A stretch of 64,000 bases of DNA from Candidatus Omnitrophota bacterium (GTDB taxonomy: Bacteria > Omnitrophota > Gorgyraeia > Gorgyraeales > Gorgyraeaceae). The notes beneath the pieces were generated by a model. The model did not search any database, was not told where the DNA came from, and was given only the letters and a program-made list of their open reading frames with translations. The stretch's first letter is position 1. Each line of letters begins with the position of its first letter. The stretch is taken from NCBI GenBank assembly GCA_030649895.1, contig JAUSEX010000052.1, forward strand, positions 16,988 through 80,987, written 5' to 3'. Both the position numbers and the translations under genes were made by a program. Below are positions 813 to 21,750 of this stretch, in pieces.

Positions 813-850
813 TAGACACATCTGGAGGCTATTTTCTTTCAAATATTTTT
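813..850 (-). promoter_or_regulatory. Conserved ~40-nt upstream motif, copy a (plus strand TAGACACATCTGGAGGCTATTTTCTTTCAAATATTTTT). It lies immediately upstream of the RBS of the 487-789 gene.
   Basis: The same motif (TAAGACACATCT-N8-TTTTCTTTCAAAnATTTT) recurs at 3183-3220, 7518-7557, 9753-9791, 11597-11637, 15709-15748 and 21708-21750, always upstream of minus-strand genes. Confidence 0.6.
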
Positions 851-852
851 AT

Positions 853-952
853 CTTCTCGACTGGGCTTGCGTGAATAGCTTGCTTTTTCCGCTCGAAGAA
901 TAATACTGTTCGAGCGGACATTGCGATCCAATCTGAAAGCCTAGTCGAGAAC
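853..952. repeat. Nested palindromic element, copy B (intergenic). It abuts the stop codon of the GT4 gene.
   Basis: CTTCTCGAC(853-861) ... CCGCTCGAAGAATAAT ... GTTCGAGCG(908-916) ... GTCGAGAAC(944-952). Same module order as copy A. Confidence 0.8.
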
Positions 953-2262
953 TATTTAGACAGGATAGTATTATACAACTTCTCAGTATCTTTTATCAAT
1001 CTTTCTTTTGAGAATCGGTTTTTCACGATATTCCTGCCATTTTCGCCAAATTGTCTTCTTTTTTCAGGTTCTCTTATTAAATCCATGAGTTTTCGACCAA
1101 ACTCTTCCACATCCTCTGACTCTACCAGATATCCACTCTTTCCATCCTGCACCATATCCACTACACCGCCTACTTTAGTAGCAACCACAGGCCTTGCGCC
1201 AGCCATAGCTTCAATAAGCGATACCGGCGTCCCCTCATTCAGTGATGTCAAAACCACTATGTCTAACCCCTCATAAATCGCCTTTAAGTCCTTCTCCCAT
1301 CCTCTAAACTCTACTATATCTTTTATGCCCAATTCCCCTGCATATTTTTCTAATTCTTCCCTTAATTCCCCATCGCCTATAATTATAAATTTAACTTCTC
1401 GACTCTGCGCACATGATATGCTTTCATGCCCGCTCGAAGAATATTTGCTACCAATATCGTTCGAGCGGACATGTTGTTTCAGATTGCAAGCACAGTCGAG
1501 AACCATCTTATGATTTTTTATGGGCACAAGCCTGCCAACTATGCCTATATTTACAATGTCAGCATTTTCCTTCGGCGCTAATTTAAATAACTCCTCTAAT
1601 TCAAATCCTAACTCTATCACAGAAATTTTATTCTCTGGCGCTATTCTATATTTTTCTACAAGTTCTTTTTTTAAATTTTCGCTTACTGTAATAATCTTAT
1701 CCGTAAACAGCGCCAGAAATCTCTCCACCCATATAAAAAATAACGTTTTAATTTTCCCGAAATATCCGCTAAACGCATGGCCATGAAATGTATGGACAAT
1801 AACAATACTGTTCGAGCGAGGCCGAATATCTTCTCGACAAGCTCGAAGAATATTCGGCCAAGTAGAGAACCTTATAACTTCACACAACACTCCCGCCATC
1901 CTACCCAACGCTCCAGCCTTCGCCGTATGTGTGTGAATAATATCCGGTTTTTCCTCGCGAATAATCTTATATATTTTACAAAATGCCGTCCAATCATCTT
2001 TCCATGACAATTCTCTGCCAAGTTCTTTTACAATAACCGGCTTAATGCCCTTCTCGGCCGCCAGGTAAATCATGTCGCCTTCGCTCTCAGCCACCTCGCC
2101 ACACACAAGCACAGTTTCATATTTTATCTTCTCGACTTCGCTCGAAGAATATTGTTCGAGCGAGGCCGAAGGCCGAATCGAGAACCCTTCTGTCAACAAT
2201 ACTGCATTCCTCGCCGGCCCGCCAATATTAAGTCTCGCAATAATCCTGACTATTTTAATCAT
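952..2262 (-). CDS. Glycosyltransferase family 4 (GT-B fold) carrying three in-frame insertions of the palindromic element.
   Basis: GT4 hallmarks are present (N-terminal MIKIVRIIARLNIGGPARN; C-terminal GLDIVVLTSLNEGTPVSLIEAMAGARPVVATKVGG EX7E-like region). Three segments encoded by the repeat copies (FSIRPSASLEQYSSSEVEKIKYETVLVCGEVAESEGD; LCEVIRFSTWPNILRACREDIRPRSNSIVIV; DCACNLKQHVRSNDIGSKYSSSGHESISCAQSREVKF) interrupt otherwise conserved GT4 sequence without breaking the frame. Confidence 0.8.
   Translation of the reverse strand: MIKIVRIIARLNIGGPARNAVLLTEGFSIRPSASLEQYSSSEVEKIKYETVLVCGEVAESEGDMIYLAAEKGIKPVIVKELGRELSWKDDWTAFCKIYKIIREEKPDIIHTHTAKAGALGRMAGVLCEVIRFSTWPNILRACREDIRPRSNSIVIVHTFHGHAFSGYFGKIKTLFFIWVERFLALFTDKIITVSENLKKELVEKYRIAPENKISVIELGFELEELFKLAPKENADIVNIGIVGRLVPIKNHKMVLDCACNLKQHVRSNDIGSKYSSSGHESISCAQSREVKFIIIGDGELREELEKYAGELGIKDIVEFRGWEKDLKAIYEGLDIVVLTSLNEGTPVSLIEAMAGARPVVATKVGGVVDMVQDGKSGYLVESEDVEEFGRKLMDLIREPEKRRQFGENGRNIVKNRFSKERLIKDTEKLYNTILSK
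1395..1503. repeat. Nested palindromic element, copy C, inside the GT4 coding sequence and in frame.
   Basis: CTTCTCGAC(1395-1403) ... CCCGCTCGAAGAATATT ... GTTCGAGCG(1459-1467) ... GTCGAGAAC(1495-1503). Confidence 0.8.
1804..1870. repeat. Nested palindromic element, copy D (permuted compact form), inside the GT4 coding sequence and in frame.
   Basis: GTTCGAGCG(1810-1818) aggccgaatat CTTCTCGAC(1830-1838) aa GCTCGAAGAATATTCGGCC(1841-1859) aa GTAGAGAAC. The stem ggccgaatat/atattcggcc is complementary. Confidence 0.75.
2128..2187. repeat. Nested palindromic element, copy E (60-bp compact form), inside the GT4 coding sequence and in frame.
   Basis: CTTCTCGAC ttc GCTCGAAGAATATT GTTCGAGCG aggccgaaggccgaa TCGAGAACC. 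It encodes KYSSSEVEK, the same peptide as the copy in asnB at 18488-18557. Confidence 0.8.
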
Positions 2263-2594
2263 CCGATTATCTTTCTTATATTCTCTTCTACTTTATTTAA
2301 GTCGACTTTCGAAATTTCTCCTATTTTCCTGAAAATCATATTTGACTTTATTGTTCTTATAATTCCAGTAACCAATGAAGGGTAGAGCAACCCTGCTTCT
2401 TTCCATTGAGAAATCTTTGTATCGCCTAAGAGTATCCTATCTACATTACTGGTAATAGCTAAGATAACCACTTCTTGCCTTTCTGTATGATATGCTTCAC
2501 TGCTTATAACCAATGCCGGCCTTTTCTTGAATCCTATCCCTTCAGAAAAACCAAAATTCACCAGCGCGATGTCCCCATGTTTACATTTTATCAT
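2259..2594 (-). CDS. mazF: Type II toxin, MazF/PemK family endoribonuclease.
   Basis: MIKCKHGDIALVNFGFSEGIGFKKRPALVISSEAYHTERQEVVILAITSNV is a canonical PemK/MazF pattern (GDI..V.F...G.E...RPALV.S......VV..ITS). The start overlaps the upstream antitoxin stop (ATGA-type coupling). Confidence 0.8.
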   Translation of the reverse strand: MIKCKHGDIALVNFGFSEGIGFKKRPALVISSEAYHTERQEVVILAITSNVDRILLGDTKISQWKEAGLLYPSLVTGIIRTIKSNMIFRKIGEISKVDLNKVEENIRKIIG

Positions 2595-2832: not shown

Positions 2833-2905
2833 ATAAAACACCTCCTACCAAAACTATACCACATTTACACAAATGTGTCAATACACATGTATATTATTAT
2901 GGGAA

Positions 2906-3160
2906 CTAGGCTTCTATAGCGCACCCAGATAAAGCAATGTGCATTTTTTGCACATTGCTTTTTTCTCCTAACTCTTTTGAGTTAAATATGTTACTAATAT
3001 GTCGCGTTATTACACTTCTATCTATTTGAAATAGTTTCGCTATTTTAGCTTGAGTAAGCCAAACCGTATCCTGCTCAAGCTTAATTTCTAATAAAACTTT
3101 ATTGTGCTTATCACTATAGATAACTATTTCTCCCTTAAAAAACTTATCTTGATCTACCAT
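2906..3160 (-). pseudogene. RhuM-family (Fic/DOC-associated virulence protein) N-terminal fragment, 84 aa, truncated.
   Basis: EIKLEQDTVWLTQAKIAKLFQIDRSVITRHISNIFNSKELGEKSNVQKMHIA matches the conserved N-terminus of RhuM proteins (TVWLTQ..MAELFQ....NISLHIKNIF..EL.E.SV.K). Full-length family members are about 330 aa. Confidence 0.55.
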
Positions 3161-3182
3161 ATTTGACTCCTCCTTTGTATAA

Positions 3183-3220
3183 TAGACACATCTGGAGGCT
3201 GTTTTCTTTCAAATATTTTC
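3183..3220 (-). promoter_or_regulatory. Conserved ~40-nt upstream motif, copy b, followed (minus strand) by TATTATAC, an AGGAGG RBS and the ATG of the RhuM fragment.
   Basis: Plus strand TAGACACATCTGGAGGCTGTTTTCTTTCAAATATTTTC. Confidence 0.6.
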
Positions 3221-3239
3221 ATGGCTTTATTATAACTAT

Positions 3240-5626: not shown

Positions 5627-6544
5627 TTACCGATAAAGAATTTTTTCAAGCTTCTCAACCGCTGCCTTCCGGAGAAACGCGCTCATTTGATTTAAGTTAT
5701 ACAACTTCCACTGAACCGCCGGAAGCTTACTTGCGTCATCTAAACCTAAAAGCCCCCAATCAGGATTGCCTTGTTTAAATGATATAAGAAATTTTTTATC
5801 ATCGTTAGTGAGATTTTCAAGCACCGTCCGAAATAATTTCTCGCGGGTTTCTATTAAGTCACTCAATTGCACCGGAATAGTGGGCATTTTCTCAAATTGC
5901 GTTTTAAAGACTTCTGTTAAATCCTTCCTATTCGGCATTAAAAGCTCTGAAATAGGCCGATTGCCACATATTAAATATACCAAAAAAGATTTTTTCAATG
6001 TCTTGGTAATGCCTTCATTCGCAAACAAAACCATAACATCAAAAAAATCTCGGGGATGCTGACGATCTAATGCCGCACATAATTTCCCGGCATACAGTTC
6101 ATCAAAAGACACAACTGGAACTTTTACATATCCAAAAAAATTTTCAACAATACGAGATATCTGCATTTTCGTTGGCGAATACAGCAAGCCCCGCGATACG
6201 GGAGATGCTTCTATTTTAATACTCTCCGAATCATGCCAGACAACTAATTTAGCTATATTCTCGTCATTATTTTTTTGTGCGCTCACAGAAGAACCAACAA
6301 TCGAATGTTTTATTTGAGCTGCCATCGATTGAAAGGCTTGCGTTATCTCGAATAGAGAAACAACCCGTTCCTTGATCGGGGTATACACAAGATCAATATC
6401 AACCGATAATCGCGGCATGTCCCGCACAAAAAGATTGATGGCTGTCCCACCTTTAAGCGCGAAACAATCACAAGCCGCGACATGAGGCAATACTCGCACC
6501 AATAATTGCACCCGTTTAAAATACGGGTTTATTGTATCAAACAT
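5627..6544 (-). CDS. Nucleotidyltransferase, AbiEii toxin family (type IV TA), number 2.
   Basis: CFALKGGTAINLFVRDMPRLSVDIDLVY motif. The start overlaps the upstream AbiEi gene by 8 nt. Confidence 0.8.
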   Translation of the reverse strand: MFDTINPYFKRVQLLVRVLPHVAACDCFALKGGTAINLFVRDMPRLSVDIDLVYTPIKERVVSLFEITQAFQSMAAQIKHSIVGSSVSAQKNNDENIAKLVVWHDSESIKIEASPVSRGLLYSPTKMQISRIVENFFGYVKVPVVSFDELYAGKLCAALDRQHPRDFFDVMVLFANEGITKTLKKSFLVYLICGNRPISELLMPNRKDLTEVFKTQFEKMPTIPVQLSDLIETREKLFRTVLENLTNDDKKFLISFKQGNPDWGLLGLDDASKLPAVQWKLYNLNQMSAFLRKAAVEKLEKILYR

Positions 6545-7313
6545 TAAATTTTTCCGGCACTGTTATTAAATAGGTCTTATTTAATTTGCCTTTATTCACA
6601 ATAAGCCTTTTCCCATTACCTAAATTAACGGCATCCTTGTCTATTGTCTCCAGCCAGGGATGCTTATAGTATTCTGCCAAAAATAAAAACAATCTCTTGA
6701 CTGCGACATGCCTACAAGCGCGCAGTAATTCATTAACTACATTCGGACGTAATGTGGTTAACCCTTCCATAAGCTCTGCGGCAAAGGTAAATGAAAATTC
6801 ATCTTTAACAAATACCAACGCTTCCATTATTGCCATTTCAGGCGATGAAATCTTTAATGGCCAGTCCTTTATAGGACTTTTTATTTCCATAAATCCCACG
6901 TTTTTGGGCACGCCTCTAAATAACTGTTTATGCACAACTCGTAAAGATACATTAAGAGTGACATTCCTAACCCACGAAGGGATTTTTGACAATCCCACAA
7001 GATATATCTGATTTTCTCCCGCTAATCTTAAATAATGAGAAAACCCCTGTAAATTAAGCGCTGTTTCTCCGCTAACATGATAAGCTACCCCCTCTATGTG
7101 TTGCCACGAAGCAACCAAGCCCTGCCAACTCACTTCTGTTGTCGGCCTGCTATACGCTCCTTTACCTACAGATTTAAGCCATCCACCTTTAACATAATTA
7201 TGAGTACGCTGTCTGGAGTATCCTTTATCCTGTAGCCATTTGCTTGGAGCTATGGCACCTTCAGGTAAACATAGATATAATTGGTTTATTTTTTCGTTGT
7301 TTTGTATATTCAT
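6537..7313 (-). CDS. AbiEi-family antitoxin / transcriptional regulator, number 2.
   Basis: N-terminal winged helix ...KWLQDKGYSRQRTHNYVKGGWLKSVGKGAYS (AbiEi_4 pattern L...G.L....RG.Y). Paired immediately upstream of AbiEii. Leaderless-like TATACT 7 nt before the ATG. Confidence 0.75.
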   Translation of the reverse strand: MNIQNNEKINQLYLCLPEGAIAPSKWLQDKGYSRQRTHNYVKGGWLKSVGKGAYSRPTTEVSWQGLVASWQHIEGVAYHVSGETALNLQGFSHYLRLAGENQIYLVGLSKIPSWVRNVTLNVSLRVVHKQLFRGVPKNVGFMEIKSPIKDWPLKISSPEMAIMEALVFVKDEFSFTFAAELMEGLTTLRPNVVNELLRACRHVAVKRLFLFLAEYYKHPWLETIDKDAVNLGNGKRLIVNKGKLNKTYLITVPEKFNV

Positions 7314-7432
7314 ACTTTACAGTATATCATATTTCTAAACTAAAAACAAGCTTATGGTTTAAATTTTATTATTCTTGTATATTGTGGGTTTACTTTTTAA
7401 TATTATTCTAAACATCGTCTCTGTATCTGCCA

Positions 7433-7557
7433 TATCTGTAATATACATCTTACCATCCGTAGCCAGCATTTTTAAACCGTTACATTTTGTAACGGTTTCA
7501 CTACCCTTTCGCTACTATATAAGACACATCTCAAAGGTGTTTTCTTTCAAAAATTTT
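7433..7557. repeat. Composite repeat unit, copy 1: 25-bp perfect palindrome AAACCGTTACATTTTGTAACGGTTT (7474-7498) followed by the conserved 40-nt motif (7518-7557).
   Basis: Near-identical to the unit at 15623-15748. The palindrome also occurs at 11284-11308 with compensatory changes (GTGAC...GTCAC). Confidence 0.8.
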
Positions 7558-7987
7558 AAAATATTTCATTCCTTAAAATCCCGACTACATACCCCACATT
7601 CCTTAATGGATTATCAGTGCGCATTTTGGAGACTTTTTCAACGGCTTTGCGCACATCATTTTCATTGTATTCTTTCATAATCCTTATGAAATTCTCAACC
7701 ACTTTTGGGCTATAGCCTTTATCTATCATGAAGCTAAGCTCTCTGGCCTTCGCGACTTCGTCCTTTCCATAACGCGCCTCTAATCCAAGCCATTTTTTCT
7801 CCATATCTTTTTCTGAATAAAGTATACCCAGAAGATACTCGCTTGGCTCTCTATCCTCATAACCAGCGCCTTTAGCTACTCTGGCTCTTTTTATCTCCAG
7901 AACACCGTATTTTTCAAGCTCTCTCATGCTAGGGGAAATAGTAGTATGATCCACATGAAAATCCTGCGCCAGTAAATTAAGGCTCAC
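7556..7987 (-). CDS. 'Family A' winged-helix / DnaD-like domain protein, copy 1. GTG start; the N-terminus is fused to a remnant of the PLD gene's 5' region.
   Basis: MRELEKYGVLEIKRARVAKGAGYEDREPSEYLLG (wHTH-like) ... IRIMKEYNENDVRKAVEKVSKMRTDNPLRNVGYVVGILRNE (DnaD-domain-like C-terminus). The open frame extends upstream into 7988-8100 without an ATG. Confidence 0.6.
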   Translation of the reverse strand: MSLNLLAQDFHVDHTTISPSMRELEKYGVLEIKRARVAKGAGYEDREPSEYLLGILYSEKDMEKKWLGLEARYGKDEVAKARELSFMIDKGYSPKVVENFIRIMKEYNENDVRKAVEKVSKMRTDNPLRNVGYVVGILRNEIF

Positions 7988-8160
7988 AGACCACCACGGG
8001 CTATCTTTACTAAGAGATTCTTTATAGACATTGATAAAATACGCGAACTTAGCGCTTTGGCTTAGTTTCCTTGACCAGTCATATTCCCAGTAGGCAAAAT
8101 GGAAGGATAAAAAGAAATTTTAGTGAAGAGTGTTTTCAACCTATAAACATCCTATGCTTA
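7988..8160. repeat. Recombination scar. The 5' leader/signal-peptide region of the PLD gene (AATGGAAGGATAAAAAGAAATTTTAGTGAAGAG...) is fused directly to the family A gene. The PLD body has been deleted in this copy.
   Basis: Sequence 8095-8160 matches 12640-12700/12770-12830 and 16670-16740, which flank PLD genes at the other two module copies. Confidence 0.6.
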
Positions 8161-8163
8161 TGA

Positions 8164-8925
8164 TTATCCATTGCCTATTCTTTTCAAGAGCTCATCCGAG
8201 AATTTCTGGATTTCTTCTCTGGTTACCGGCTCACGATAATACAATTCATCCATCTCGTCCCGGAATCTCTCCTGAGATATACGTAAATTTTCGACTATGC
8301 TTTTTTTGTCTAAAGGCCTGAACATTTCTTTCTTTGCCAGCAATGCCAAAGCGTCATCTATATTCAATCCCAATTTTTTCTGTAATATAACCAAATCATA
8401 CGGATCCCTGGGCCTTGCCCTATCGTTAAGCGTGCGTATTTTCTCGGCAAAAATCTCGCTTGTGTCCATAACCGGACAGGAAAGCTTAACCCCGTAATAA
8501 TTCTTGTATTCCATTACTTTTGGCTCAAGCAATACTTTTTGATTAGTGTTTATATCTACCTCGATTGTATCCGGCTGGGCTAATACACCGCGGTATTGCA
8601 CGGAAAACGCTAACCCGAATTTTTTCTCTTCTATATCCTTTAATTTAAATATTTCAAAATCTGAAAATAGACTCTCCACGTCGGATAGCTTTAATTTAGT
8701 CTTCGAAGTAAAATCCAGGTCTTTCGAGAAACGAATCTGGTCCAAATAGCAGTGATAGATGGCTGTCCCGCCTTTAAAGACAAGCGCGTCTTTTAATTCA
8801 GAACCGTAAATAATACTTAAGATTACCGCTAAGAAATAATCCTTTTCAGCATCCTGCAAATTATATTTAAGGCCGCGTTTATTTAAGACCTCTAATCGCG
8901 CCCTATCCAACAAATCTATCTTCAT
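8164..8925 (-). CDS. Nucleotidyltransferase, AbiEii toxin family, number 3.
   Basis: DALVFKGGTAIYHCYLDQIRFSKDLDFTSK motif. Overlaps the upstream AbiEi gene. Confidence 0.8.
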   Translation of the reverse strand: MKIDLLDRARLEVLNKRGLKYNLQDAEKDYFLAVILSIIYGSELKDALVFKGGTAIYHCYLDQIRFSKDLDFTSKTKLKLSDVESLFSDFEIFKLKDIEEKKFGLAFSVQYRGVLAQPDTIEVDINTNQKVLLEPKVMEYKNYYGVKLSCPVMDTSEIFAEKIRTLNDRARPRDPYDLVILQKKLGLNIDDALALLAKKEMFRPLDKKSIVENLRISQERFRDEMDELYYREPVTREEIQKFSDELLKRIGNG

Positions 8926-9676
8926 AATATAACCGCCATTTCGCGTTAAATTTCTTTGAATTAGGCGTAAGTTTACTATAACCTTTGGCTCCTACGGTCT
9001 TGCGCAATTCTTCAGTATCTATTTTTAATATATCTAAAATAAATCCTAATTTTCGTCTGGCCGCCTCAGGAAATTTCCGGGCATAGGTAAACAGCCTCCT
9101 AAAATTTATTCTGTCTTTTGCTTTTTGCAGTTTCTCCAGCAGTAAATCTATGGAATAAGTGTCATTTTTAAAATAGAGATAATCTAGAATCACTTTTTCA
9201 AGCTCCGCGACTTTTACGTAGTAGCCTTCTATGTTTTCAGTCTTAAAGCCAAAATACAGCTTTTTGTTTATCTTCAGATACCGATAGGTGTTTTTTTGAA
9301 ACACGTACTTCTTGGACTTAAGATTGGTTACCGATGATACAGTACGCAACATCTGTTCGAAAAGGCCATAATGATTTAAAGCTGAATCCAGCGAAACATA
9401 AGAATCTTTATTAAAGGCATTCGCTATAATAACAGGCGAAATATTCACAAAGCCGCGCGAGGAGATATCTGAGATAAAATAAAGCCCTCTCCTCAAAGGA
9501 ATGAGCCAGCCGTTTTTTTTGAGCTCATAGACCCGCTTCTTGAGGACAAATTTCGAGTATTTCCTGCCTAATGCCTTATGGATATCGTTGGCAGTTACGA
9601 TCTTACCCGAAGCAACAATAATATCTTCTATATCCACAAGTCGTTTTTCCGTTAAAATAGTATTCTTTGAAACCAC
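8903..9676 (-). CDS. AbiEi-family antitoxin / regulator, number 3 (GTG start).
   Basis: VYELKKNGWLIPLRRGLYFISD is an AbiEi_4 winged-helix signature. AAGGGGG RBS. sigma70-like TTGACA(9730-9735)-N17-TTTAAT(9707-9712) upstream. Confidence 0.7.
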   Translation of the reverse strand: MVSKNTILTEKRLVDIEDIIVASGKIVTANDIHKALGRKYSKFVLKKRVYELKKNGWLIPLRRGLYFISDISSRGFVNISPVIIANAFNKDSYVSLDSALNHYGLFEQMLRTVSSVTNLKSKKYVFQKNTYRYLKINKKLYFGFKTENIEGYYVKVAELEKVILDYLYFKNDTYSIDLLLEKLQKAKDRINFRRLFTYARKFPEAARRKLGFILDILKIDTEELRKTVGAKGYSKLTPNSKKFNAKWRLYYEDRFVG

Positions 9677-9706: not shown

Positions 9707-9791
9707 ATTAAACCATACAAATATACTTTTGTCAAGTAGCTTTCTTGCATATATAAGACACATCTCAAAGGTGTTTTCTTTCAAAAATTTT
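9707..9791 (-). promoter_or_regulatory. Promoter of AbiEi#3 (TTGACA-N17-TTTAAT), with the conserved 40-nt motif (9753-9791) just upstream of the -35 element.
   Basis: Minus strand: ...TTGAAAGAAAACACCTTTGAGATGTGTCTTATATATGCAAGAAAGCTACTTGACAAAAGTATATTTGTATGGTTTAATTC... Confidence 0.6.
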
Positions 9792-9866
9792 AGTTAAATA
9801 TAACTAATTTATGTAACACCTTTATTTGTAATTAATTGCAACTACTACTTAAAAGTCAATAAGCAG

Positions 9867-10847: not shown

Positions 10848-11485
10848 TTATCTTAGTAGTTTTTTATCATGGGGTAGCTTTATATAACTGTCTTTAGTTA
10901 TAACCTTTTTGCCTGTCTTCGACTCAATTTCTTTTCTCGCTTTCCCCGCAACATGCCCGCCCTGTCGTGCCACCTTTCGATTTTCCCTGAACGTCTTTGG
11001 TTCTTTTGCATTTGAAATTTCAGCAGTGCTGGCCTCCGCAAGCATATTCAAAACAAGCTCCAAATTCGTCATGTTATCGCGCAAATTTTCCTTTTTAAGT
11101 TCTTTAAACTTTTTATATTGCTTGGTCGTTAGGCCTGCCCAGGCAAATGTAATTTCATCAGTCAAAATAGCAAAGTCACCGGCCTCTTTAACGCCGCGCT
11201 TCTGCCATTCATCAGTTAAAGCCTTACGAAGCTCAATGCTTTTTCTGTAACACGCATCTTGCCATCCGCAGCCAGCATTTTCAAACCGTGACATTTTGTC
11301 ACGGTTTCACTGCCTTCTTTTTTAAGGCGTTCTTTTAGCTTTCTCCAATACGCAAGAGGAGATACGCTATCAGTAAGCACTGATATTATATCCGCTACTA
11401 CAAAAAACCATTTTTCTGTCTTTTCGTCCCAACTACGCCTGATTTTCTTACCTTCGAATAGAGCTATCTGAGATTTTTTCTCCAT
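10848..11485 (-). pseudogene. DinD-like gene, copy 2. It is disrupted: split into two ORFs (11216-11485 N-terminal part, 10848-11294 C-terminal part) by a repeat insertion together with a ~70-aa deletion.
   Basis: N-part MEKKSQIALFEGKKIRRSWDEKTEKWFFVVADIISVLT...TKCHGLKMLAADGK and C-part ...LTDEWQKRGVKEAGDFAILTDEI...YKKFKELKKENLRDNMTNLELVLNMLAEAST both align with DinD copies 1 and 3. The segment between them (CANTEGIFRIIQS...IEKRIRG) is missing and replaced by the palindromic element at 11250-11320. Confidence 0.7.
11250..11320. repeat. Inserted copy of the 25-bp palindrome element (AAACCGTGACATTTTGTCACGGTTT at 11284-11308) with flanking CATCTTGCCATCCGCAGCCAGCATTTTC. It disrupts DinD copy 2.
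   Basis: Matches 7440-7500 and 15640-15700, except for two compensatory substitutions that keep the palindrome perfect. Confidence 0.75.
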
Positions 11486-11596
11486 TTATCCCTCCAAATT
11501 TTCATTACAAAGATTTCTATATTAAACACTTTTATTATACCACGCTTTTCAATTCTTCTCTAAGAAACTGCATCATGCGCCACCTCCTCTCTACCC

Positions 11597-11637
11597 TATA
11601 AGACACATCTGGAGGTAGTTTTCTTTCAACTATTTTT
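11597..11637 (-). promoter_or_regulatory. Conserved 40-nt motif, copy e, upstream of the DinD#2 start.
   Basis: TATAAGACACATCTGGAGGTAGTTTTCTTTCAACTATTTTT. Confidence 0.55.
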
Positions 11638-11686
11638 ACTTTTTTGATTTTTTGTGAAAAAGGCAGGTAAAACCAGATTACAAATA

Positions 11687-12687: not shown

Positions 12688-12824
12688 GGGTTCTTGTGGG
12701 CGGAATACTGAGCGGCCTGAACATATTCGCACCCTAAAGGGCGTGGTTTTAGGCCGCGAATGTAGAAATTTTAGGGAAGAGTATTTCAATCTATAAACAT
12801 CCTATCAGGCCTATCCGGCACCCC

Positions 12825-14082: not shown

Positions 14083-15351
14083 TCATCCCAACAACCACTT
14101 ATAAATAGGCTTAACCATTATAACCTTCCCTTCTAACGCAATCTCTTCCTCGGTATCTTCAGTCAAAATAAGCGCAGTTTTCAACTTAAGTTCATCCATG
14201 GCTTTTATCAGCGCATTGAGCTCTCTCGATCTCGTTTTTTCGTTATCTAAATTATCCGCAACCTGAATAAGCAATAGATCATTTTTGCCAGACTTGACCA
14301 AGAAATCAACTTCCAGATTATTTGTGGTCTTATAATAATAAATCTCTTGGAACTTGCGCCTAAGCTCAAGGAATACCAAGTTTTCTAAAAACTTTCCCTT
14401 ATTCTTGGAAAATTGGAATGCGACCGCTTCTGCCAAACCATTGTCGATACAGTAAATCTTCTTAAAGGAGACAAACTGCTGTTTGAGAGAATAAGAAAAC
14501 CTGCTGATGAGGAATATCAAGTAGCTGTTTTCCAAGAAATCCGCGTAGCTCTTGATGGTATTCATGCTGCCTACTCCAAGAACTTTTTTCAGATTATTAT
14601 AAGAGAATGTCCCTCCGAGATTACTCAAAAGATACAGCCCAAGCTCCCTCAATGGTTTAACCTGCTTGATACCATATCTTGCCACGATGTCCCGGTAAAG
14701 AATGTCTTCATATACCCGCTTCAAAAGGGTTGTATCTTGATACTTCAAATACTCGGGCATGCCTCCATGCTTGAGATATTCAGCAAAATGCTTCTTGATA
14801 GCAGCTCTAACTGAGGTCAAAGACAGGCTGTCCTTGGATAACTGGAAACCCTTGAAAGAGAGAAATTCCATAAAAGAGAACGGGAACAATTCAATGTTAA
14901 CGTTTCTGCCTGTCAGTTTCGCGCCAAGCTCCTTGCTAAGCAATGAGGCATTCGAACCTGTGATAAAAAATTTGCATCCCTTACCTTGCATCCGACGCAC
15001 AAACACTTCCCATTGGGGAACGTTCTGAACCTCATCGAAAAAGAAAACCTTTTTATCTCCATACAACTCCAGAAACACCTCGTAAAGATGATTGAAATCC
15101 TCAACATTGAAGTCCACAAGGCGTTCATCTTCAAAATTAAGATAATAAACACCTTTCTTGTAAAGATTACTGATAATCTGATTGAGCAATGTAGACTTGC
15201 CAGAACGGCGCACTCCTGAAACAACTACCGCATGGGGTAAAGTTGCATGCCGTGAAGCAACACTCAATGCTGCCCTTGGAATACCAATATCTATATCCTG
15301 ACGATCTTTTTCTTGTTCAAGAACGATTTCTTTTAATAATGACTTATGCAT
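14083..15351 (-). CDS. AAA+ ATPase (AAA_14-like) with a C-terminal DUF4143 / PD-(D/E)xK-like domain, copy 2.
   Basis: Walker A GVRRSGKST; Walker B FFDEVQ; ITGSNASLL; C-terminal ...EVDFLV...IQV. Confidence 0.8.
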   Translation of the reverse strand: MHKSLLKEIVLEQEKDRQDIDIGIPRAALSVASRHATLPHAVVVSGVRRSGKSTLLNQIISNLYKKGVYYLNFEDERLVDFNVEDFNHLYEVFLELYGDKKVFFFDEVQNVPQWEVFVRRMQGKGCKFFITGSNASLLSKELGAKLTGRNVNIELFPFSFMEFLSFKGFQLSKDSLSLTSVRAAIKKHFAEYLKHGGMPEYLKYQDTTLLKRVYEDILYRDIVARYGIKQVKPLRELGLYLLSNLGGTFSYNNLKKVLGVGSMNTIKSYADFLENSYLIFLISRFSYSLKQQFVSFKKIYCIDNGLAEAVAFQFSKNKGKFLENLVFLELRRKFQEIYYYKTTNNLEVDFLVKSGKNDLLLIQVADNLDNEKTRSRELNALIKAMDELKLKTALILTEDTEEEIALEGKVIMVKPIYKWLLG

Positions 15352-15366
15352 CCTGTCTCCTTATGT

Positions 15367-15416
15367 TCTCACTGTTAATGAGAGTATATCATATATAGTT
15401 CTCATTGTCAATGAGA
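15367..15416 (-). promoter_or_regulatory. Promoter of AAA#2: TTGACA(15406-15411)-N17-TATACT(15383-15388), flanked by two 17-bp palindromic operators TCTCATTGTCAATGAGA (15400-15416, containing the -35) and TCTCACTGTTAATGAGA (15367-15383, at the transcription start).
   Basis: Minus strand: tctcaTTGACAatgagaactatatatgaTATACTctcattaacagtgagaacatAAGGAGAcaggATG. Confidence 0.7.
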
Positions 15417-15622
15417 ATAAGGATCTAAGTTCTTCAAAAATTCTGCAGCCTCTCTCATGAAATCCTCTATTAAGACCTACTGTATTGCTTTCAGCAATTC
15501 CAGATCGTTTAACATCCGATTCAGGCATCTGCACAGAAAGGGTGGTGGCAATTTGCCTCCACCCTTTAGCCAACTACGAATCCCTTTCTATATTATCACT
15601 CAATTCTCTATTAACAATAGCC

Positions 15623-15748
15623 ATATCTGTAATATGCATCTTGCCATCCGCAGCCAGCATTTTCAAACCGTTACATTTTGTAACGGTTTCACTACCCTCT
15701 CGCTACTATATAAGACACATCTCAAAGGTGTTTTCTTTCAAAAATTTT
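15623..15748. repeat. Composite repeat unit, copy 2: 25-bp palindrome (15665-15689) plus the conserved 40-nt motif (15709-15748).
   Basis: About 95% identical to 7433-7557. Confidence 0.8.
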
Positions 15749-16153
15749 AAAAATAAATAAACCGCGCAGGTGATTCATTAGTCTTTTGCTTCTTTCTTCA
15801 AAATCCCCACTAAATATCCGGATATTCCTTAAAGGATTATCCGGACGCATGGAGGAGACTTTTTCAACGGCTTTGCGCACGTCATTTTCATTGTATTCTT
15901 TCATAATCCTTATGAAATTCTCAACCACCTTTGGGCTATAGCCTTTGTCTATCATAAAGCTGAATTCCCGGGCTTTGGCTACCGTGTCCTTACCGTAAAG
16001 CTTTTCCATGCCAAGCCATTTTTTCTCCATATCTTTTTCTGAATAAAGTATACCCAGAAGATACTCGCTTGGCTCTCTATTCTCATGACCAACGCCTTTG
16101 GCTATCCTAGCTCTTTTTATCTCCAGGACGCCATATTTTTCAAGCTCTCTCAT
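15722..16153 (-). CDS. 'Family A' winged-helix / DnaD-like protein, copy 3. The C-terminus is altered by a +1 frameshift (extra G in ATCCGGATATT), so it reads through into the repeat unit.
   Basis: Identical to the other copies up to RPDNPLRNI, then diverges (RIFSGDFEERSKRL...) instead of GYLVGILRKE. The DNA still encodes the ancestral ending in the -1 frame. Confidence 0.55.
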   Translation of the reverse strand: MRELEKYGVLEIKRARIAKGVGHENREPSEYLLGILYSEKDMEKKWLGMEKLYGKDTVAKAREFSFMIDKGYSPKVVENFIRIMKEYNENDVRKAVEKVSSMRPDNPLRNIRIFSGDFEERSKRLMNHLRGLFIFKIFERKHL

Positions 16154-16566
16154 GCCAGGGAAATTGGAGCCAATGATTTATCCTTTAAGAACCTGGCAGG
16201 GCATTTTATCGTTACAATCTGCGCTTCATCTATAGATCTCTTATCCACAAAAGGCCTAAGCCTTAGGATATTCTTTAATTTTTCCTTGGCATACTCTCTG
16301 GATATTATTAAATCAGCATTCTCGCTATTTAACCTGAATGCTGAATATGACCAGTTAGAGCTTCCTGATATTACAATAAATTTAACCGGCACGCCCTCTC
16401 TATAAAGCGCTAAAAAAGCTGAATCGTTCTTATCTTCATTATAGGGTTTACTCCTATCCAAATAGACCTCTATATTTACGCCTCTAGTATGCGCATCTAT
16501 TATATCCTGAACCAGCTTATACGCTTCGCTTTCAGTTTTATCCAGCTCCATAGATATCTCATACAT
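16150..16566 (-). pseudogene. PLD/Nuc-like nuclease paralog lacking the ATG and signal-peptide start region and carrying a 48-nt in-frame deletion that removes the catalytic HKD His-Lys segment.
   Basis: ...VKFIVISGSSNWSYSAFRLNSENADLIISREYAKEKL... The segment MPGKRLHDKLIVIDKN present at 12290-12337 is absent; the deletion is flanked by an ACAATA direct repeat. The upstream frame has no ATG and hits TAG. Confidence 0.6.
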
Positions 16567-16723
16567 CGCTATATAAATAGAGTCCTTTGATTTGGAAAGC
16601 GCTTCGTGGGCGGCTTGGAAATATTTGTCATCGCTTATATCTTGGATATCTACTTGGACTGCGAAACTTTTGATTGGAAATAATAAAAATGGAAGGATAA
16701 AAAAAATTTTAGGGAAAAGTATT

Positions 16724-18667
16724 TCAATCTATAAATTCCCTATGCCAGAGTTCCAGAAATAGAAGGCTCCAAATTCTGGCACCGTTGTTGGCTTTGCAGG
16801 CCATATGATCATCCAGAAGTTTCTTTACGGTCTCTTTTTTAAAATAACTTCTCTTTATGGCTTTATCGCTCATGAGGATATCATGCGAATAACCTTTTAG
16901 TTCATTGCGGAACCAAGAGTCTAAAGGCACGCCAAAACCCATTTTGCTTCTGGAAAGTATTTCTTTGGGCAATGCCTTGGATAATGCTTTCTTTAATATA
17001 TATTTTAATTTTGTGCCTTTTATTTTCATGCTACTCGGCATGCTGGCGCAGAATTCCATCATTTTATGGTCTAGAAACGGCGAACGGCCTTCCAAGGAAT
17101 TGGCCATTGTAGCAATATCCATTTTTACAAGCAGATCATCCAATAGATTAGTTTTTATATCAGCGCACATTACCTTATCCACCACATCTTCAGAGCCGCA
17201 TTCATTAAACGCTTTATCTAAATAATTAAATGAATTCCTGCCGGATATTTCTTTATTAAATTCATCAGTAAACAGGTTATTCTTTTCGTGATCATTAAAT
17301 ATAGCCGTCCAATTATAATGTCTTTCCCTGTATGGTTTAGGCAATTCCACCAGAAATCTTCTAATCCTAGCTTTAGAATCCTTAACCCCGAGAGATTCAG
17401 GTATCTTCCCTGTAATCAATTTTATAATCTTTTCCTTAAATGGAGCTGGTATTTTATTGATTAATTCCGCGTATCTCGTGGCCATAAACCTCTCGTATCC
17501 TCCAAAACACTCATCTCCCCCATCTCCATTTAGAGCCACTGTGACTTCCTGTCTGGTCATTTTAGCTACATAATAACTCGGAAGCGCTGAAGAATCAGCG
17601 TATGGTTCATTGTAATGCCATACAAGTTTTGGCAAAAGATCTATAGCGTCTGGTTTAACAATATATTCATGATGTTCTGTTTTAAACCGTTCAGCGATAA
17701 TTTTAGCGTATTTTAATTCGCTATACTCTTTATTATCAAAACCTATGGAAAATGTTTTTACAGGCTTTGAACTTAGTTTACTCATCATATATACTACAGC
17801 ACTCGAATCTATACCCCCGCTTAAAAACGCTCCGAGCGGAACATCGCTTATAAGCCGTATCTTTGTGCACTCCTCCAGCATATCCATTGTCCTGTCGCAA
17901 TATTCTTTCTCGGATAATTTTAGTTTCTTAGAAAAATCAAGCTTCCAGTATTTTTCTAATCTTATATTGCCTTTTTCATAGATCATAAAATGAGCAGGCG
18001 GAAGTTTCATAATGCCTTTAAACATAGTTTCAGGCGTAGGCGTATATCCGTAACTTAGGTAATCTGTAATGGCAGGCCTGTTGACCTCTTTAGAAATATC
18101 GGGATCTTGAAGAATGGCCTTGATCTCAGAAGCAAAGGTCAATGTTTGGTTCTTATATGTATAATAAAGCGGCTTTTTACCTATCCTATCCCGCGCCATA
18201 AAAAGCCTTTCTTTTTTATTGTCCCATATAGCAAAAGCAAAAGGCCCTCTTAAATCCTTAAGGCACTCCACGCCTTTTTCTTCATACAGATGTAAAATTA
18301 CCTCTGTATCAGTATGCGACTTAAAAATATGGCCTTTTTTTACAAGCTCGTCTTTTAATTCTATAAAATTATAAATTTCACCGTTCAGAACTATCCAAAT
18401 AGACCCATCTTCGTTACTCATTGGCTGATGGCCTGCGGGCGATAAATCAATAATAGCGAGCCTCCTATGCCCCAAACCAACGTTAGCAATATTGTTCGAG
18501 CGAGGCAAAATATACTTCTCGACTTCGCTCGAAGAATATTTTGCCGAGTCGAGAACCTTTATCCCCTCATTATCCGGCCCTCTATGCGTAAGAACCCCGC
18601 ACATCTTTCTGATGAGCTCTTCCGTCACATTCCCATTCGCACTAATTTTCCCGCATATCCCGCACAT
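16724..18667 (-). CDS. asnB: Asparagine synthetase B-like glutamine amidotransferase, copy 1, carrying an in-frame palindromic-element insertion near the N-terminus.
   Basis: N-terminal MCGICG... (Cys2 Ntn-hydrolase nucleophile), LGHRRLAIIDL, and a synthetase domain SGGIDSS. An extra ~24-aa segment DSAKYSSSEVEKYILPRSNNIAN lies between HRGPDNEG and LGHRR relative to the paralog at 46419-48314, and is encoded by 18488-18557. Confidence 0.9.
   Translation of the reverse strand: MCGICGKISANGNVTEELIRKMCGVLTHRGPDNEGIKVLDSAKYSSSEVEKYILPRSNNIANVGLGHRRLAIIDLSPAGHQPMSNEDGSIWIVLNGEIYNFIELKDELVKKGHIFKSHTDTEVILHLYEEKGVECLKDLRGPFAFAIWDNKKERLFMARDRIGKKPLYYTYKNQTLTFASEIKAILQDPDISKEVNRPAITDYLSYGYTPTPETMFKGIMKLPPAHFMIYEKGNIRLEKYWKLDFSKKLKLSEKEYCDRTMDMLEECTKIRLISDVPLGAFLSGGIDSSAVVYMMSKLSSKPVKTFSIGFDNKEYSELKYAKIIAERFKTEHHEYIVKPDAIDLLPKLVWHYNEPYADSSALPSYYVAKMTRQEVTVALNGDGGDECFGGYERFMATRYAELINKIPAPFKEKIIKLITGKIPESLGVKDSKARIRRFLVELPKPYRERHYNWTAIFNDHEKNNLFTDEFNKEISGRNSFNYLDKAFNECGSEDVVDKVMCADIKTNLLDDLLVKMDIATMANSLEGRSPFLDHKMMEFCASMPSSMKIKGTKLKYILKKALSKALPKEILSRSKMGFGVPLDSWFRNELKGYSHDILMSDKAIKRSYFKKETVKKLLDDHMACKANNGARIWSLLFLELWHREFID
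18488..18557. repeat. Nested palindromic element, copy F (permuted compact form), in frame inside asnB.
   Basis: AATATT GTTCGAGCG(18494-18502) aggcaaaatat A CTTCTCGAC(18515-18523) ttc GCTCGAAGAATATTTTGCC gag TCGAGAACC. Confidence 0.8.
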
Positions 18668-18750
18668 ACTATAATTACTCCTTATTCCGCATAAACGTTT
18701 TTATGGAATTTTAATTGCCGTCGTAGAGATATAATATTTAATGTCGATCA

Positions 18751-20078: not shown

Positions 20079-20221
20079 GATAGTGTGTCCAGCTTAATTC
20101 GTGACGCAGCGCGTCACGATTCGAATACATCACATAGAAATGCCTTATATTTTAGAACCATAAGGCTCGTAACTTATTATAAGGTAAAATGTTACAGCTC
20201 AGTAAGACGTCCCCGATGCTA
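20079..20221. repeat. 143-bp repeat, copy 1 (orphan). It is a duplicated 5' region, N-terminal coding segment plus promoter-like leader, of the YhcG-like nuclease gene.
   Basis: About 93% identical to 25119-25261. Its reverse complement encodes MMYSNRDALRHELSWTHY..., the N-terminus of the gene at 24445-25173. Contains the imperfect palindrome TCGTGACGCagcGCGTCACGA. Confidence 0.75.
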
Positions 20222-20276
20222 TCTCTTAAAGGCTTCGTGGATGGTGGATTTATTTACAACTCAACATAAGATTGCG

Positions 20277-21608
20277 TTACAGATTCCCTGCTTCACGAAC
20301 CAATCTTTTCATCTGCTCTGCCATATACAACGGCAGCGTTAACACTTTATCATGCAAAGATAGCTTCTCCTGCGAAAAGCGCACACCAAACAATGATTTC
20401 TTTTCTTCAATAAACAGTTTTAGTGATTTAAGCGTGCCGGTTTTTCCTGCCTTGACCTCCACCGGCAATATCAGAGAATCTACCGCCACAACATAATCAA
20501 CTTCAGCTGAGCTGCTTTTTTTATCACGAGCCCAGAAAAATAAGCCGCACTTTAAATAACTGTCAAAATAGGCCCTCAGCTCCTGGCCAATGAGCTGTTC
20601 TGTTACAGCGCCAGCATTAATCAGAAAAAAATTATTCGTTAATGTAAGTTCGGCCTGCAGGCCGCAGGCATTCTGCATTAGGCCTACATCAAGGAAGTTT
20701 AATTTGAATTTCATTTCATTAGCTTGCGCTCCCAAAGGAAGCCCTGAAGCGGCAGTAGCGTATATGGGATAGACGATACCTGCTAATTTCAAAAGGTTAA
20801 GCGCCTGTTTGATATCCCTAGATTTACTATGAGGATCGACATTTGAATACTTGATACGATTACCAACAAGCCGCGGAGCTTCATCCAATACCTTTTGCAA
20901 ATATTTGAGTTCGGAAGATTTTGCGTATTTCCCAAAATCATTCCGATACGCTTGCAGCAAAGAATTTTGAATTCGCTGACAATTTAAAAAGTTTCTATTA
21001 TCAAGGTGCTCTTTAACCACAGCCGGCATCCCTCCCACAATAAGATATATCCGCAACAAATCCATCAGCTTCTGATGTACCGCATCATCAAATACGCTGT
21101 TCAATCGTATTTCCCGCAGATGATCCCGCAACAATTCATTCCCGGATGCCGTCAAAAACTCCCCAAAAGACAAAGGCTCAAGATATATAAACTGGATTCT
21201 CCCCACCGGCATTTTAAAATCTGAACTGTTAAGCGCGAATTCCATTAATGAACCTGCCCCAATAACGGCAAGCCGATCATACTTTTCCTTGAAATACCGC
21301 AAGGCCATTATCGCGTTAGGGCATTCTTGTATCTCATCAAGAAAGAGCAATGTTTTCTCTGCTTCTATGTTTTCGCCCATAAGAAGCTGCAACTTATTAA
21401 TAATCTCGATAGGATCAAGCGTAGTAAAACATTGTTTGAGTTCAGGCCTAAATTCAAAATTAACAATAACTATATTTTTAAATGCTCTTTTTCCAAACTC
21501 TTCCACAATGTAACTTTTACCTACTTGCCGCGCTCCTCGCAACAATAATGGCAGCCTGTCTTTGCATTCTTTCCAGTTAAATAAATCTCTTTCCAAGTCT
21601 CTTTTCAT
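20277..21608 (-). CDS. AAA+ ATPase (AAA_14-like) with a C-terminal DUF4143 / PD-(D/E)xK-like domain, copy 4.
   Basis: Walker A GARQVGKSY; Walker B FLDEIQ; IGAGSLMEF; C-terminal ...EVDYVV...VEVKAGK. Confidence 0.8.
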   Translation of the reverse strand: MKRDLERDLFNWKECKDRLPLLLRGARQVGKSYIVEEFGKRAFKNIVIVNFEFRPELKQCFTTLDPIEIINKLQLLMGENIEAEKTLLFLDEIQECPNAIMALRYFKEKYDRLAVIGAGSLMEFALNSSDFKMPVGRIQFIYLEPLSFGEFLTASGNELLRDHLREIRLNSVFDDAVHQKLMDLLRIYLIVGGMPAVVKEHLDNRNFLNCQRIQNSLLQAYRNDFGKYAKSSELKYLQKVLDEAPRLVGNRIKYSNVDPHSKSRDIKQALNLLKLAGIVYPIYATAASGLPLGAQANEMKFKLNFLDVGLMQNACGLQAELTLTNNFFLINAGAVTEQLIGQELRAYFDSYLKCGLFFWARDKKSSSAEVDYVVAVDSLILPVEVKAGKTGTLKSLKLFIEEKKSLFGVRFSQEKLSLHDKVLTLPLYMAEQMKRLVREAGNL

Positions 21609-21707
21609 GGCAAACTCTTTCTATGTATGGCTAATATACAAGCATATAGTATAACAATATTGGCTATAATACAAGGTATATTATGTGGAACCGATAGCTT
21701 CCTTTTA

Positions 21708-21750
21708 TATATAGACACATCTTAAGGGTGGTTTCTTTCAATTTTTTTTA
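21708..21750 (-). promoter_or_regulatory. Conserved 40-nt motif, copy g, about 100 nt upstream of AAA#4.
   Basis: TATATAGACACATCTTAAGGGTGGTTTCTTTCAATTTTTTTTA. Confidence 0.55.

Follow-up and report, generated by a model that had tools for sequence, protein, structure and literature searches.

A conserved block before recombination genes and accessory cassettes of Candidatus Omnitrophota, a probable promoter of an extracytoplasmic function-type sigma factor

A sigma factor of the extracytoplasmic function (ECF) type, its anti-sigma factor and their cognate promoter form a well-known kind of regulatory system. In Bacillus subtilis, the sigma-W promoter has the form TGAAAC-N16-CGTA, and the anti-sigma factor RsiW is a membrane protein of the zinc-binding anti-sigma (ZAS) type. 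Here we describe a conserved block of about 57 bp that is found seven times in a 64,000-nucleotide stretch of DNA from a Candidatus Omnitrophota bacterium (assembly GCA_030649895.1, contig JAUSEX010000052.1, positions 16,988 to 80,987 of the forward strand). This whole stretch is referred to below as the window. It is likely that the block is the promoter of a lineage-specific ECF-type sigma factor of Omnitrophota, which would be encoded elsewhere in the genome together with a ZAS-type anti-sigma factor and spoVG; the dependence on this sigma factor is predicted from sequence.

The resemblance to sigma-W and RsiW is considerable. Both sigma factors consist of ECF regions 2 and 4 only, both are co-encoded with a transmembrane anti-sigma factor carrying an HxxxCxxC zinc motif, both operons contain an autoregulatory promoter (a putative one in Omnitrophota), and in both a TGAAA(C/G) -35 element lies about 17 bp from a (C/T)GT(A/C) -10 core. 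The relationship is nevertheless distant: the -35 element of Omnitrophota is without AAC, the -10 element is TGTCT, the gap is 1 bp longer, and an A-tract and TATATAGTAG border the block. In addition, the block precedes recombination genes and accessory cassettes, whereas sigma-W serves genes of envelope or antimicrobial defence. Competence sigma factors of Firmicutes include ComX/sigma-X, which uses the com-box TACGAATA, and sigma-H in Staphylococcus and Lactobacillus sakei (PMC3364868). These systems share with the one proposed here a dedicated alternative sigma factor, a short conserved box and the genes recA, dprA and radC, but the sigma family and the box are unrelated and most of the targets in Omnitrophota are accessory cassettes. 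No comEA, comEC, comF or pilin gene was seen among the first genes downstream of the motif. In the Sxy/TfoX-CRP-S regulon of gamma-proteobacteria, an activator site, TGCGA-N6-TCGCA, is found at sigma-70 promoters (PMC1635313). There comM, dprA and radC are co-regulated likewise, but no alternative sigma factor is involved, unlike what we propose here.

The motif is widespread in this lineage. We scanned one genome per species for the strict core TTGAAAGAAA-N9-AGATGTGTCT and obtained 56 loci, about 50 of which are labelled Candidatus Omnitrophota (metagenome-assembled genomes, MAGs, or single-amplified genomes, SAGs) and come from lakes, groundwater, sediments and marine biofilm; strict copies number 8-10 per MAG. 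A scan of metagenomes added at least 120 further loci. The collection studied here holds 195 strict-core instances in 172 loci, almost all from Candidatus Omnitrophota, and these figures, like all counts on them and the tallies of downstream genes given below, are among the matches listed. The window itself is a mosaic of segments that are 80-96% identical to pieces of other Omnitrophota MAGs and stand there in a different order. Because the motif is spread over many MAGs and the window has this mosaic structure, we regard the motif as a lineage-wide element and not as debris of one island. A first-pass annotation made from the window alone had proposed a wider search, had considered the end of a small mobile element as a possible explanation and had named duplication debris confined to this island as an outcome that would speak against its view; both are refuted by the many loci with unrelated flanks. 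A phage or mobile-element origin was likewise rejected, as 2.9 million viral contigs gave no strict-core match.

Read on the coding strand, the block consists of an A-tract, TTGAAAGAAAAY, a 12-nt spacer, TGTCT and WATATAGTAG, so that 7 variable bases separate TTGAAAGAAAAY from AGATGTGTCT(T/A)ATATA. The variable central nucleotides between conserved flanks are as first described. A comparison of 61 non-identical instances shows conservation between -17 and +40, counted from TTGAAAG, and none outside; the conserved parts are the A-rich tract (-17 to -1), the two blocks and (T/A)ATATAnTAG (+29 to +38). The invariant core, valid also in a divergent clade, is TTGAAAGAAAAY-N12-TGTCT, and TTGAAAG, a gap of 17 bp and TGTCT are constant in all copies, the divergent clade included. 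An open reading frame (ORF) start preceded by a Shine-Dalgarno (SD) sequence follows on the same strand within 300 nt in 164 of the 195 instances. The motif is always directed at the gene start and all copies of one locus lie on the same strand, while the distance to the start is never below 17 nt and most commonly 22-24 nt (43 instances). The positional statistics that the first-pass annotation had suggested as a check therefore gave a strict orientation and a spacing of at least 17 nt.

The arrangement of these parts indicates where transcription begins. The SD sequence may start as little as 9 nt after TGTCT, and therefore the transcript start lies before it; with the start in this place TGTCT fits as the -10 element and TATAnT is excluded. 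The latter candidate was rejected because it lies 25 bp from TTGAAA, which would put the start in or past the SD sequence. At recA and comM loci (L008, L011 and L015) a divergent upstream gene begins 30-40 nt before the motif, and since these 30-40 nt show no conservation the promoter must lie within the block. Housekeeping promoters in these genomes read TTGACA-17-TATAAT and often stand shortly downstream of the motif, which therefore differs from the housekeeping consensus; ordinary sigma-70-type sites follow window copies 2, 4, 5 and 6 and are present at recA. The sequence in the place of a standard sigma-70 -10 hexamer, 17 bp past TTGAAA, is GTGTCT. This agrees with the first-pass annotation, which had seen in TTGAAA a -35-like element of something other than a standard sigma-70 promoter, and TGTCT indeed stands at an ECF-type distance from it. 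The same annotation gave about 22 nt to any -10 element, which missed TGTCT at 17-18 bp past TTGAAA(G) and ran instead to the AT-rich TATATA; this sequence more likely lies between the -10 element and the start site. A long perfect hairpin, GTAGGG...CCCTAC, is present at about ten loci and starts at positions 31-36, which would be the place for a stabilising 5'-terminal stem-loop if transcription starts there.

A phmmer search with E. coli RpoE against every ORF in the 1.08 Mb around the copies gave one ECF-type sigma factor in 14 loci, always on the same strand and 430-500 bp upstream of a motif-spoVG unit. This protein of 187 aa has the domains Sigma70_r2 and r4_2, which is the ECF architecture (regions 2 and 4 only), and it scores 77 bits with TIGR02937 (cutoff 42.9) but reaches no equivalog model. 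Among solved proteins it matches B. subtilis SigW best over the full length (5wuq, E = 2.6e-8), and every named member of its family (140 clusters) belongs to Omnitrophota. The gene after it encodes the anti-sigma factor, a zf-HC2 protein with Cys-x24-His-x3-Cys-x2-Cys and hydrophobic segments, and the 3' end of this gene holds the spoVG copy of the motif. Upstream of the sigma gene there is a terminator hairpin and then a variant of the motif, TTGAAAGAAAA-N9-(T/A)ATGTGTCTTATATAGT, 20-60 nt before the start in 12 of 13 informative loci. In four genomes with a sigma factor of 54-59% identity the order TPR / 140-aa gene / sigma / zf-HC2 / SpoVG / aroA is kept. These divergent genomes carry the motif before spoVG, with the -10 variants CTGTGTCT and CCATGTCT, in all three loci reaching that far (L177-L179), before the anti-sigma gene in three of four (L178, L179 and L180), and also ahead of inserted Y1_Tnp genes. 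A motif placed in a sigma/anti-sigma operon is the signature of an autoregulated ECF promoter and the usual ground for assigning a promoter to such a sigma factor; it counts as strong circumstantial evidence but falls short of proof. We favour an ECF promoter because TTGAAAG, the 17-bp gap and TGTCT, together with this autoregulated layout, are like the sigma-W sites of Bacillus. A literature search on Omnitrophota sigma factors, recA control, LexA/SOS and competence found nothing relevant.

According to the proposed mechanism, sigma region 4 would read TTGAAAG, with help from the upstream A-tract in the manner of an UP element, and sigma region 2 would read TGTCT 17 bp downstream. Transcription would start about 6-8 nt after TGTCT, in TATATA/GTAG, giving a leader of about 15-20 nt that would bear only the SD sequence. 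The anti-sigma factor would keep the sigma factor inactive until its release by a signal, perhaps redox or envelope stress, and the freed sigma factor would co-induce chromosomal recombination genes and island cassettes. In the window, the targets would be a coiled-coil ORF, a RhuM fragment, parD/mazF by read-through, two AbiE pairs, a split Bro-N gene and two AAA_14 ATPases. At several targets a downstream sigma-70 promoter would provide basal expression.

Several points weigh against this assignment. The -35 element is TGAAAG, with AAG in place of the ECF-typical AAC, although the -10 element TGTCT does contain GTC, and the gap exceeds that of sigma-W or sigma-E promoters by 1-2 bp. The near-invariance over about 40 bp exceeds the usual sigma-DNA contacts, and a further protein may bind. 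The sigma gene of the divergent clade has no motif in front of it, and phmmer found no sigma gene in the 64-kb window, so that relatives are the ground for assuming it in this genome. The sigma factor is linked to the motif by adjacency and autoregulatory layout, which is the standard ECF inference and no proof. Finally, cassette and spoVG copies repeatedly have CCTC(C/G) in their spacer, and an SD-like GAAAGGAGG stands after the motif even in places without a subsequent ORF, as in recA leaders; the spacer CCTCC and the SD-like sequence without an ORF lie outside the ECF model and are not explained by it.

The first genes after the motif were clustered and annotated with Pfam. ORF6N genes are the commonest (32/164), followed by RecA (15), SpoVG (13), DUF1016/YhcG nucleases (9), Y1_Tnp (8) and a 100-aa coiled-coil ORF (8) whose family includes the gene behind window copy 1. 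AbrB-like antitoxins (7), DprA (6, four of them at 20 nt), ComM (5), RhuM, KilA-N, MNT-type nucleotidyltransferases and 23S_rRNA_IVP (4 each), DinD-like Bro-N, other Bro-N and AbiEii (3 each) and RadC (1) were also found, besides DNA methylase, ParD and Gp49/HigB. The core-genome members are recA, dprA, comM and radC, which are common to competence regulons and some of which are also found in SOS regulons; the rest of the motif-linked genes are accessory. The first-pass annotation was right in suggesting a shared regulatory site. The four dprA copies at 20 nt are valid, but the assignment to dprA in L029 and one related locus was rejected, as the motif there belongs to a decayed ORF6N cassette. 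Before recA the promoters are in tandem, the motif being followed about 40 nt later by TTTACT-N17-TATAAT (L008, L011, L015, L049, L056, L061, L076, L080, L087 and L100). An apparent Cys-rich leader peptide before recA was discarded, since it is this canonical sigma-70 promoter read as codons, and no conserved ORF starts at the SD-like sequence of the recA leaders.

Two further observations concern the surroundings of the motif at these loci. Very short cassettes, each a motif with an ORF6N or DUF1016 N-terminal gene, form tandem arrays with copies 593-660 bp apart in L109 (3148-4364), L017 and L036. Palindromes, among them GGCGACACTCTGACATTGTCAGAGTGTCGCC, CTGACAATGTCAG and GTCACAAATTGTGAC, are repeatedly found directly behind the motif or behind the sigma gene (L070 1977-2007; comM leaders of L024 and L033; ORF6N leaders of L004, L035, L036 and L158) and may be operators or RNA hairpins.

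The composition of the regulon bears on an alternative that we consider unlikely, namely that the sites are used by sigma-70 with a dedicated DNA-binding regulator, either an activator that replaces a -10/-35 contact or a LexA-like repressor at AGATGTGTCT, the ECF sigma factor being merely one of the targets. In mycobacteria, PafBC is an activator of this kind. TTGAAA comes close to the consensus of a sigma-70 -35 element, conserved blocks of 10-12 bp fit a regulator site better than sigma contacts, and recA, comM, Bro-N/DinD-like genes and toxin-antitoxin pairs resemble SOS-type regulons. In alpha-proteobacteria comM belongs to the LexA SOS regulon, and as in that regulon a single cis element serves recA, comM, a dinD-like Bro-N gene and toxin-antitoxin modules. 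However, LexA is a repressor that acts on palindromic or direct-repeat operators, and the blocks of the motif have neither symmetry. No LexA homologue was found in the 1.08 Mb of flanking sequence, and with no homologue near any copy and no link in the literature LexA was rejected. Moreover, there is no usable sigma-70 -10 element at 16-18 bp, as GTGTCT lacks the essential A at position 2, and TATAnT is too near the SD sequence. The only regulators consistently linked to the motif are the ECF sigma/anti-sigma pair, which speaks against this alternative.

The seven copies in the window all lie on the minus strand within 21 kb, at the places first reported for them to within 1-5 nt, and the core TTGAAAGAAA-N9-AGATGTGTCT is at 814-842, 3184-3212, 7522-7550, 9756-9784, 11601-11629, 15713-15741 and 21713-21741. 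The pattern of the first-pass annotation, with up to 3 mismatches, recovered six of them (expected 0.01; 0/100 shuffles gave as many), and a pattern with only the two flanks fixed recovered seven of seven (expected 0.10; 0/100 shuffles). Pattern scans gave no further copies in 22-64 kb. An eighth exact AGATGTGTCT at 21985-21994, inside an AbiEii gene (21748-22794), has no upstream TTGAAAG half and is taken as chance or a decayed half-site. All genes of the window are on the minus strand, like the motif copies, and the GC skew is negative throughout. Copies 3, 5 and 6 lie inside a segmental triplication of about 4.1 kb (families D1, D3, D5, D7 and D10) and the other four have unrelated flanks; therefore the window holds about five independent copies, not seven. 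The downstream genes were broadly right in the first-pass annotation according to Pfam and clustering, and comprise a 100-aa coiled-coil-like ORF, an 84-aa homologue of the RhuM N-terminus, two AbiEi/AbiEii pairs, Bro-N (DinD-like) genes or remnants and AAA_14/DUF4143 ATPases. The modules and the features behind them are as follows.

804..859, minus strand: putative promoter module copy 1, with A-tract 843-859, -35 TTGAAAG 836-842, spacer with TAGCCTCC, -10 TGTCT 814-818, AT-rich GTGTAG region 804-813 and predicted start near 807
487..789, minus strand: 100-aa coiled-coil-like ORF, ATG 24 nt past copy 1, SD sequence GGAGGCTA
3174..3229, minus strand: putative promoter module copy 2, -35 3206-3212, -10 TGTCT 3184-3188
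2906..3160, minus strand: 84-aa ORF, N-terminal fragment of a RhuM-family gene, ATG 23 nt past copy 2
2853..2881, minus strand: sigma-70-type promoter TTGACA-17-TATAGT with TG, ahead of the parD/mazF pair 2259-2841
7512..7567, minus strand: putative promoter module copy 3, -35 7544-7550, -10 7522-7526, in the 4.1-kb triplication
7435..7509, minus strand: 5'-truncated Bro-N/DinD-like pseudogene remnant, fused directly after copy 3 (family D7)
6537-7313 and 5627-6544, minus strand: AbiEi and AbiEii genes after the copy-3 remnant (Pfam)
9746..9801, minus strand: putative promoter module copy 4, -35 9778-9784, -10 9756-9760
9707..9735, minus strand: sigma-70-like site TTGACA-N17-TTTAAT with TGG before it, 20 nt past copy 4
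8903-9676 and 8164-8925, minus strand: AbiEi and AbiEii genes behind this sigma-70-like site (Pfam)
11591..11646, minus strand: putative promoter module copy 5, -35 11623-11629, spacer CTACCTCC, -10 11601-11605, in the triplication
11534-11562, minus strand: sigma-70-type site between copy 5 and the split Bro-N gene
10848..11485, minus strand: Bro-N/DinD-like gene split in two ORFs (11216-11485 and 10848-11294), homologous to the Bro-N protein of L085
15703..15758, minus strand: putative promoter module copy 6, -35 15735-15741, -10 15713-15717
14083..15700, minus strand: Bro-N remnant 15626-15700, sigma-70-type promoter 15383-15411 and AAA_14/DUF4143 ATPase 14083-15351
21703..21758, minus strand: putative promoter module copy 7, -35 21735-21741, spacer ACCACCCTTA, -10 21713-21717
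20277..21608, minus strand: AAA_14/DUF4143 ATPase, start 104 nt past copy 7 (Pfam)

The module of copy 1 and its gene are common to 7 other loci, and each homology block stops at 848-855. This coiled-coil-like ORF, for which a Pfam search gave no match, falls in cluster 5 with 8 motif-linked homologues, all at 22-24 nt from the motif. Upstream of copy 2 a peptidase gene is common to 4 loci and the homology ends at 3212-3239, while the 84-aa ORF groups with full-length RhuM proteins (cluster 10, with a Pfam match on the L014 member). The site TTGACA-N17-TTTAAT after copy 4 had been called a bona fide promoter; it is present, but its second hexamer is weak. The same tandem layout, a motif and then a sigma-70-like site, is found at recA in other genomes. 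Copy 7 has a homologous counterpart in L043 (UBA10183).

The triplication raises the possibility that the copies are passive duplication debris of the island without function. Copies 3, 5 and 6 do have homologous flanks on both sides, and copies 3 and 6, which are 96% identical over 133 nt (family D10), precede the same truncated pseudogene. The strict orientation and spacing to gene starts and the sharply bounded conservation speak against debris, which the unrelated flanks across the loci already refute, and we give this idea practically no credence. The copy-3 remnant aligns with the internal ETVTKC..DGKM region of an intact protein in L085. That copies 3 and 6 head 5'-truncated Bro-N pseudogenes suggests that the promoter came with antirepressor-like genes, which later decayed. 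A palindrome after these two copies, CCGTTACAAAATGTAACGG, was rejected as an operator, as it is an internal Bro-N/DinD coding segment left by the 5' truncation. The repeat unit of the triplication spans 7400-8160, 11480-12800 and 15590-16740 (families D1, D3, D5, D7, D10, D13 and D18) and consists of a PLD-like nuclease fragment, an ORF of 124-143 aa that ends at the motif and has no Pfam match, the motif, and a Bro-N gene or remnant.

The edges of the homology blocks are relevant to another explanation, in which the motif serves site-specific recombination or marks cassette boundaries in the manner of attC, or is the terminus of a small mobile element. As in integrons, small and often toxin-antitoxin-type cassettes form co-oriented arrays across genomes with a recurring junction sequence: 7 copies lie within 21 kb here, 3 in L109 are 593-595 bp apart, and L017 has 3. 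Inter-genome homology blocks break at the upstream edge of the motif, and the island is a mosaic of segments shared with other MAGs at 80-96% identity. The cassette boundary of the first-pass annotation is real to this extent, but neither an attC-like fold nor, among the ORFs scanned, an integrase was seen. The attC sites of integrons, which require IntI, are imperfect palindromes that fold and stand at the 3' end of cassettes lacking a promoter, whereas the motif is unstructured, stands at the 5' end and would carry the promoter. DNA folding of the seven modules gave -0.3 to -2.0 kcal/mol with z from -0.04 to +0.58, so that the folding test proposed earlier was negative for every copy; no inverted repeats were found in the block, and an attC-like site was rejected. 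There are no target duplications and no second end, and no recombinase or integrase was found among the ORFs scanned by Pfam (about 30 in 0.5-25 kb and 10 of about 40 beyond 25 kb). Furthermore, the motif precedes recA, spoVG, comM and the sigma operon at syntenic positions in divergent genomes and is missing from viral contigs. Movement of genes together with their promoter, or homologous recombination between the copies of 57 bp, accounts for the breakpoints, and homology stopping at the motif edge is the look of a gene travelling with its own promoter. We therefore hold a recombination site or element end to be very improbable.

The CCTCC of the spacer invites one more explanation, in which the block is an RNA leader transcribed from further upstream, where CGCCUCC pairs with the SD sequence around the loop AGAUGUGUCUUAUAUAGUAG and controls translation. 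Copy 1 can be folded in this way, TAGCCUCC pairing with GGAGGCUA (-14.4 kcal/mol, z = -2.8), and many cassette copies have 8-10 bp of complementarity. On one measure, pairing past the CCUC/GAGG core beats shuffled partners (47/10000 permutations, with relatedness uncontrolled), but the duplex energy of own versus swapped partners gave p of about 0.1 and contiguous extension p of 0.08, again with relatedness uncontrolled. CCTCC is missing from each of the 15 recA copies and from most copies at comM, dprA and the sigma gene, the divergent loci leave only 30-40 nt upstream with no conserved promoter candidate, and the block is probably upstream of the start site. Rfam at gathering thresholds gave no match in the whole window. 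With weak covariation and no CCTCC at recA, the sigma gene and most comM and dprA copies, an anti-SD hairpin was rejected as the main function and retained as a secondary idea, and an RNA leader as such is quite improbable. Copies with CCTCC and co-directional upstream genes did not go together significantly in the count made (p = 0.11), in which gene family is a confounder.

It is possible, by analogy with IS10, that the spacer CCTCC acts as an anti-SD sequence only in read-through transcripts. In that element, Davis, Simons and Kleckner reportedly described in 1985 a "fold-back inhibition" of read-through transcripts. A possible role of CCTCC would be similar in that a sequence complementary to the ribosome-binding site lies upstream of the element's own start, so that only outside transcripts would be silenced at translation. 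The differences are that covariation is weak here and that CCTCC is missing from recA and most other core-gene copies.

These elements can be joined in a broader proposal, which we offer tentatively and which as a whole is doubtful. The ECF/ZAS switch would run a recombination or competence-like response (recA, dprA, comM, radC and spoVG), the 57-bp promoter would be the standard 5' end of exchangeable cassettes, and the spacer CCTCC would be an anti-SD sequence that silences read-through, leaving the sigma-dependent start of each cassette as the only source of its translation. The cassette pool would comprise antirepressor-like (ORF6N, KilA-N, Bro-N and RhuM), toxin-antitoxin, Abi and nuclease genes, and islands would fire together with the recombination genes. 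If true, a competence-like response under an ECF sigma/ZAS switch would be a regulatory logic not described for ECF sigma factors.

The first part of the window (0.5-25 kb) contains AbiEi/AbiEii pairs, parD/mazF, four AAA_14-DUF4143 ATPases, Bro-N (DinD-like) genes, PLD-like nucleases, a family 4 glycosyltransferase (GT4) and an asparagine synthase. The remainder (25-64 kb) is a co-directional glycan-biosynthesis cluster without a motif copy, with genes for a DegT aminotransferase, a thiamine pyrophosphate (TPP) enzyme, PMT_2, a radical SAM/B12 protein, a GT1-DUF218 protein, a second asparagine synthase and a glycerophosphotransferase. The motif island is inserted at the downstream end of this cluster and has a stray GT4 and AsnB gene inside it. 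Two Bro-N genes, at 9867-10703 and 23518-24351, are 93-95% identical at both ends (families D2 and D9), and behind each there is a perfect, terminator-like hairpin, AGCAGTAGCCCAGGTTTAAACCTGGGCTACTGCT (family D20; 23482-23526 and 24405-24449).

We also found a nested inverted-repeat element of 60-140 nt, GTTCTCGAC...CGCTCGAAC..TTCTTCGAGCG...GTCGAGAAG. In the window it occurs at 350-492, 848-962, 1386-1512, 1795-1850, 2120-2180 and 18478-18556, so that the copy-1 cassette is flanked by it at both sides, and elsewhere it occurs in L010, L040, L075, L085, L146, L156 and L174. The copy at 850-960 has an RNA fold of -42.5 kcal/mol (z = -6.3). The element is in frame within intact genes, three times in the GT4 gene (e.g. 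aa 253-291) and once in the N-domain of the asparagine synthase (aa 40-62, between GIKVL and VGLGHRRLAIIDL), and peptides that recur in its translation include KYSSSEVEK. Other genomes have it in the interval from sigma to spoVG, where the anti-sigma gene is located. It resembles the Rickettsia palindromic elements and may be connected with the Y1_Tnp (RAYT-like) genes behind the motif.

Omnitrophota are uncultivated, and almost nothing is known of their gene regulation. No earlier description seems to exist of the sigma group, of the motif and its regulon, or of the motif's role as the 5' end that exchangeable cassettes have in common. If our interpretation is true, it provides a regulon defined by sequence, for which any MAG can be scanned, and a candidate sigma/anti-sigma switch for this phylum. 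The motif is also of use in annotating these genomes, as it indicates true gene starts and the boundaries of cassettes. The layout of the island would also be explained, as stacked modules that each carry the same stress-inducible promoter, several of which now stand before pseudogene remnants or neighbouring genes. Overall, the system would directly link recombination and DNA-processing genes of Omnitrophota with the expression of toxin-antitoxin and abortive-infection cassettes.

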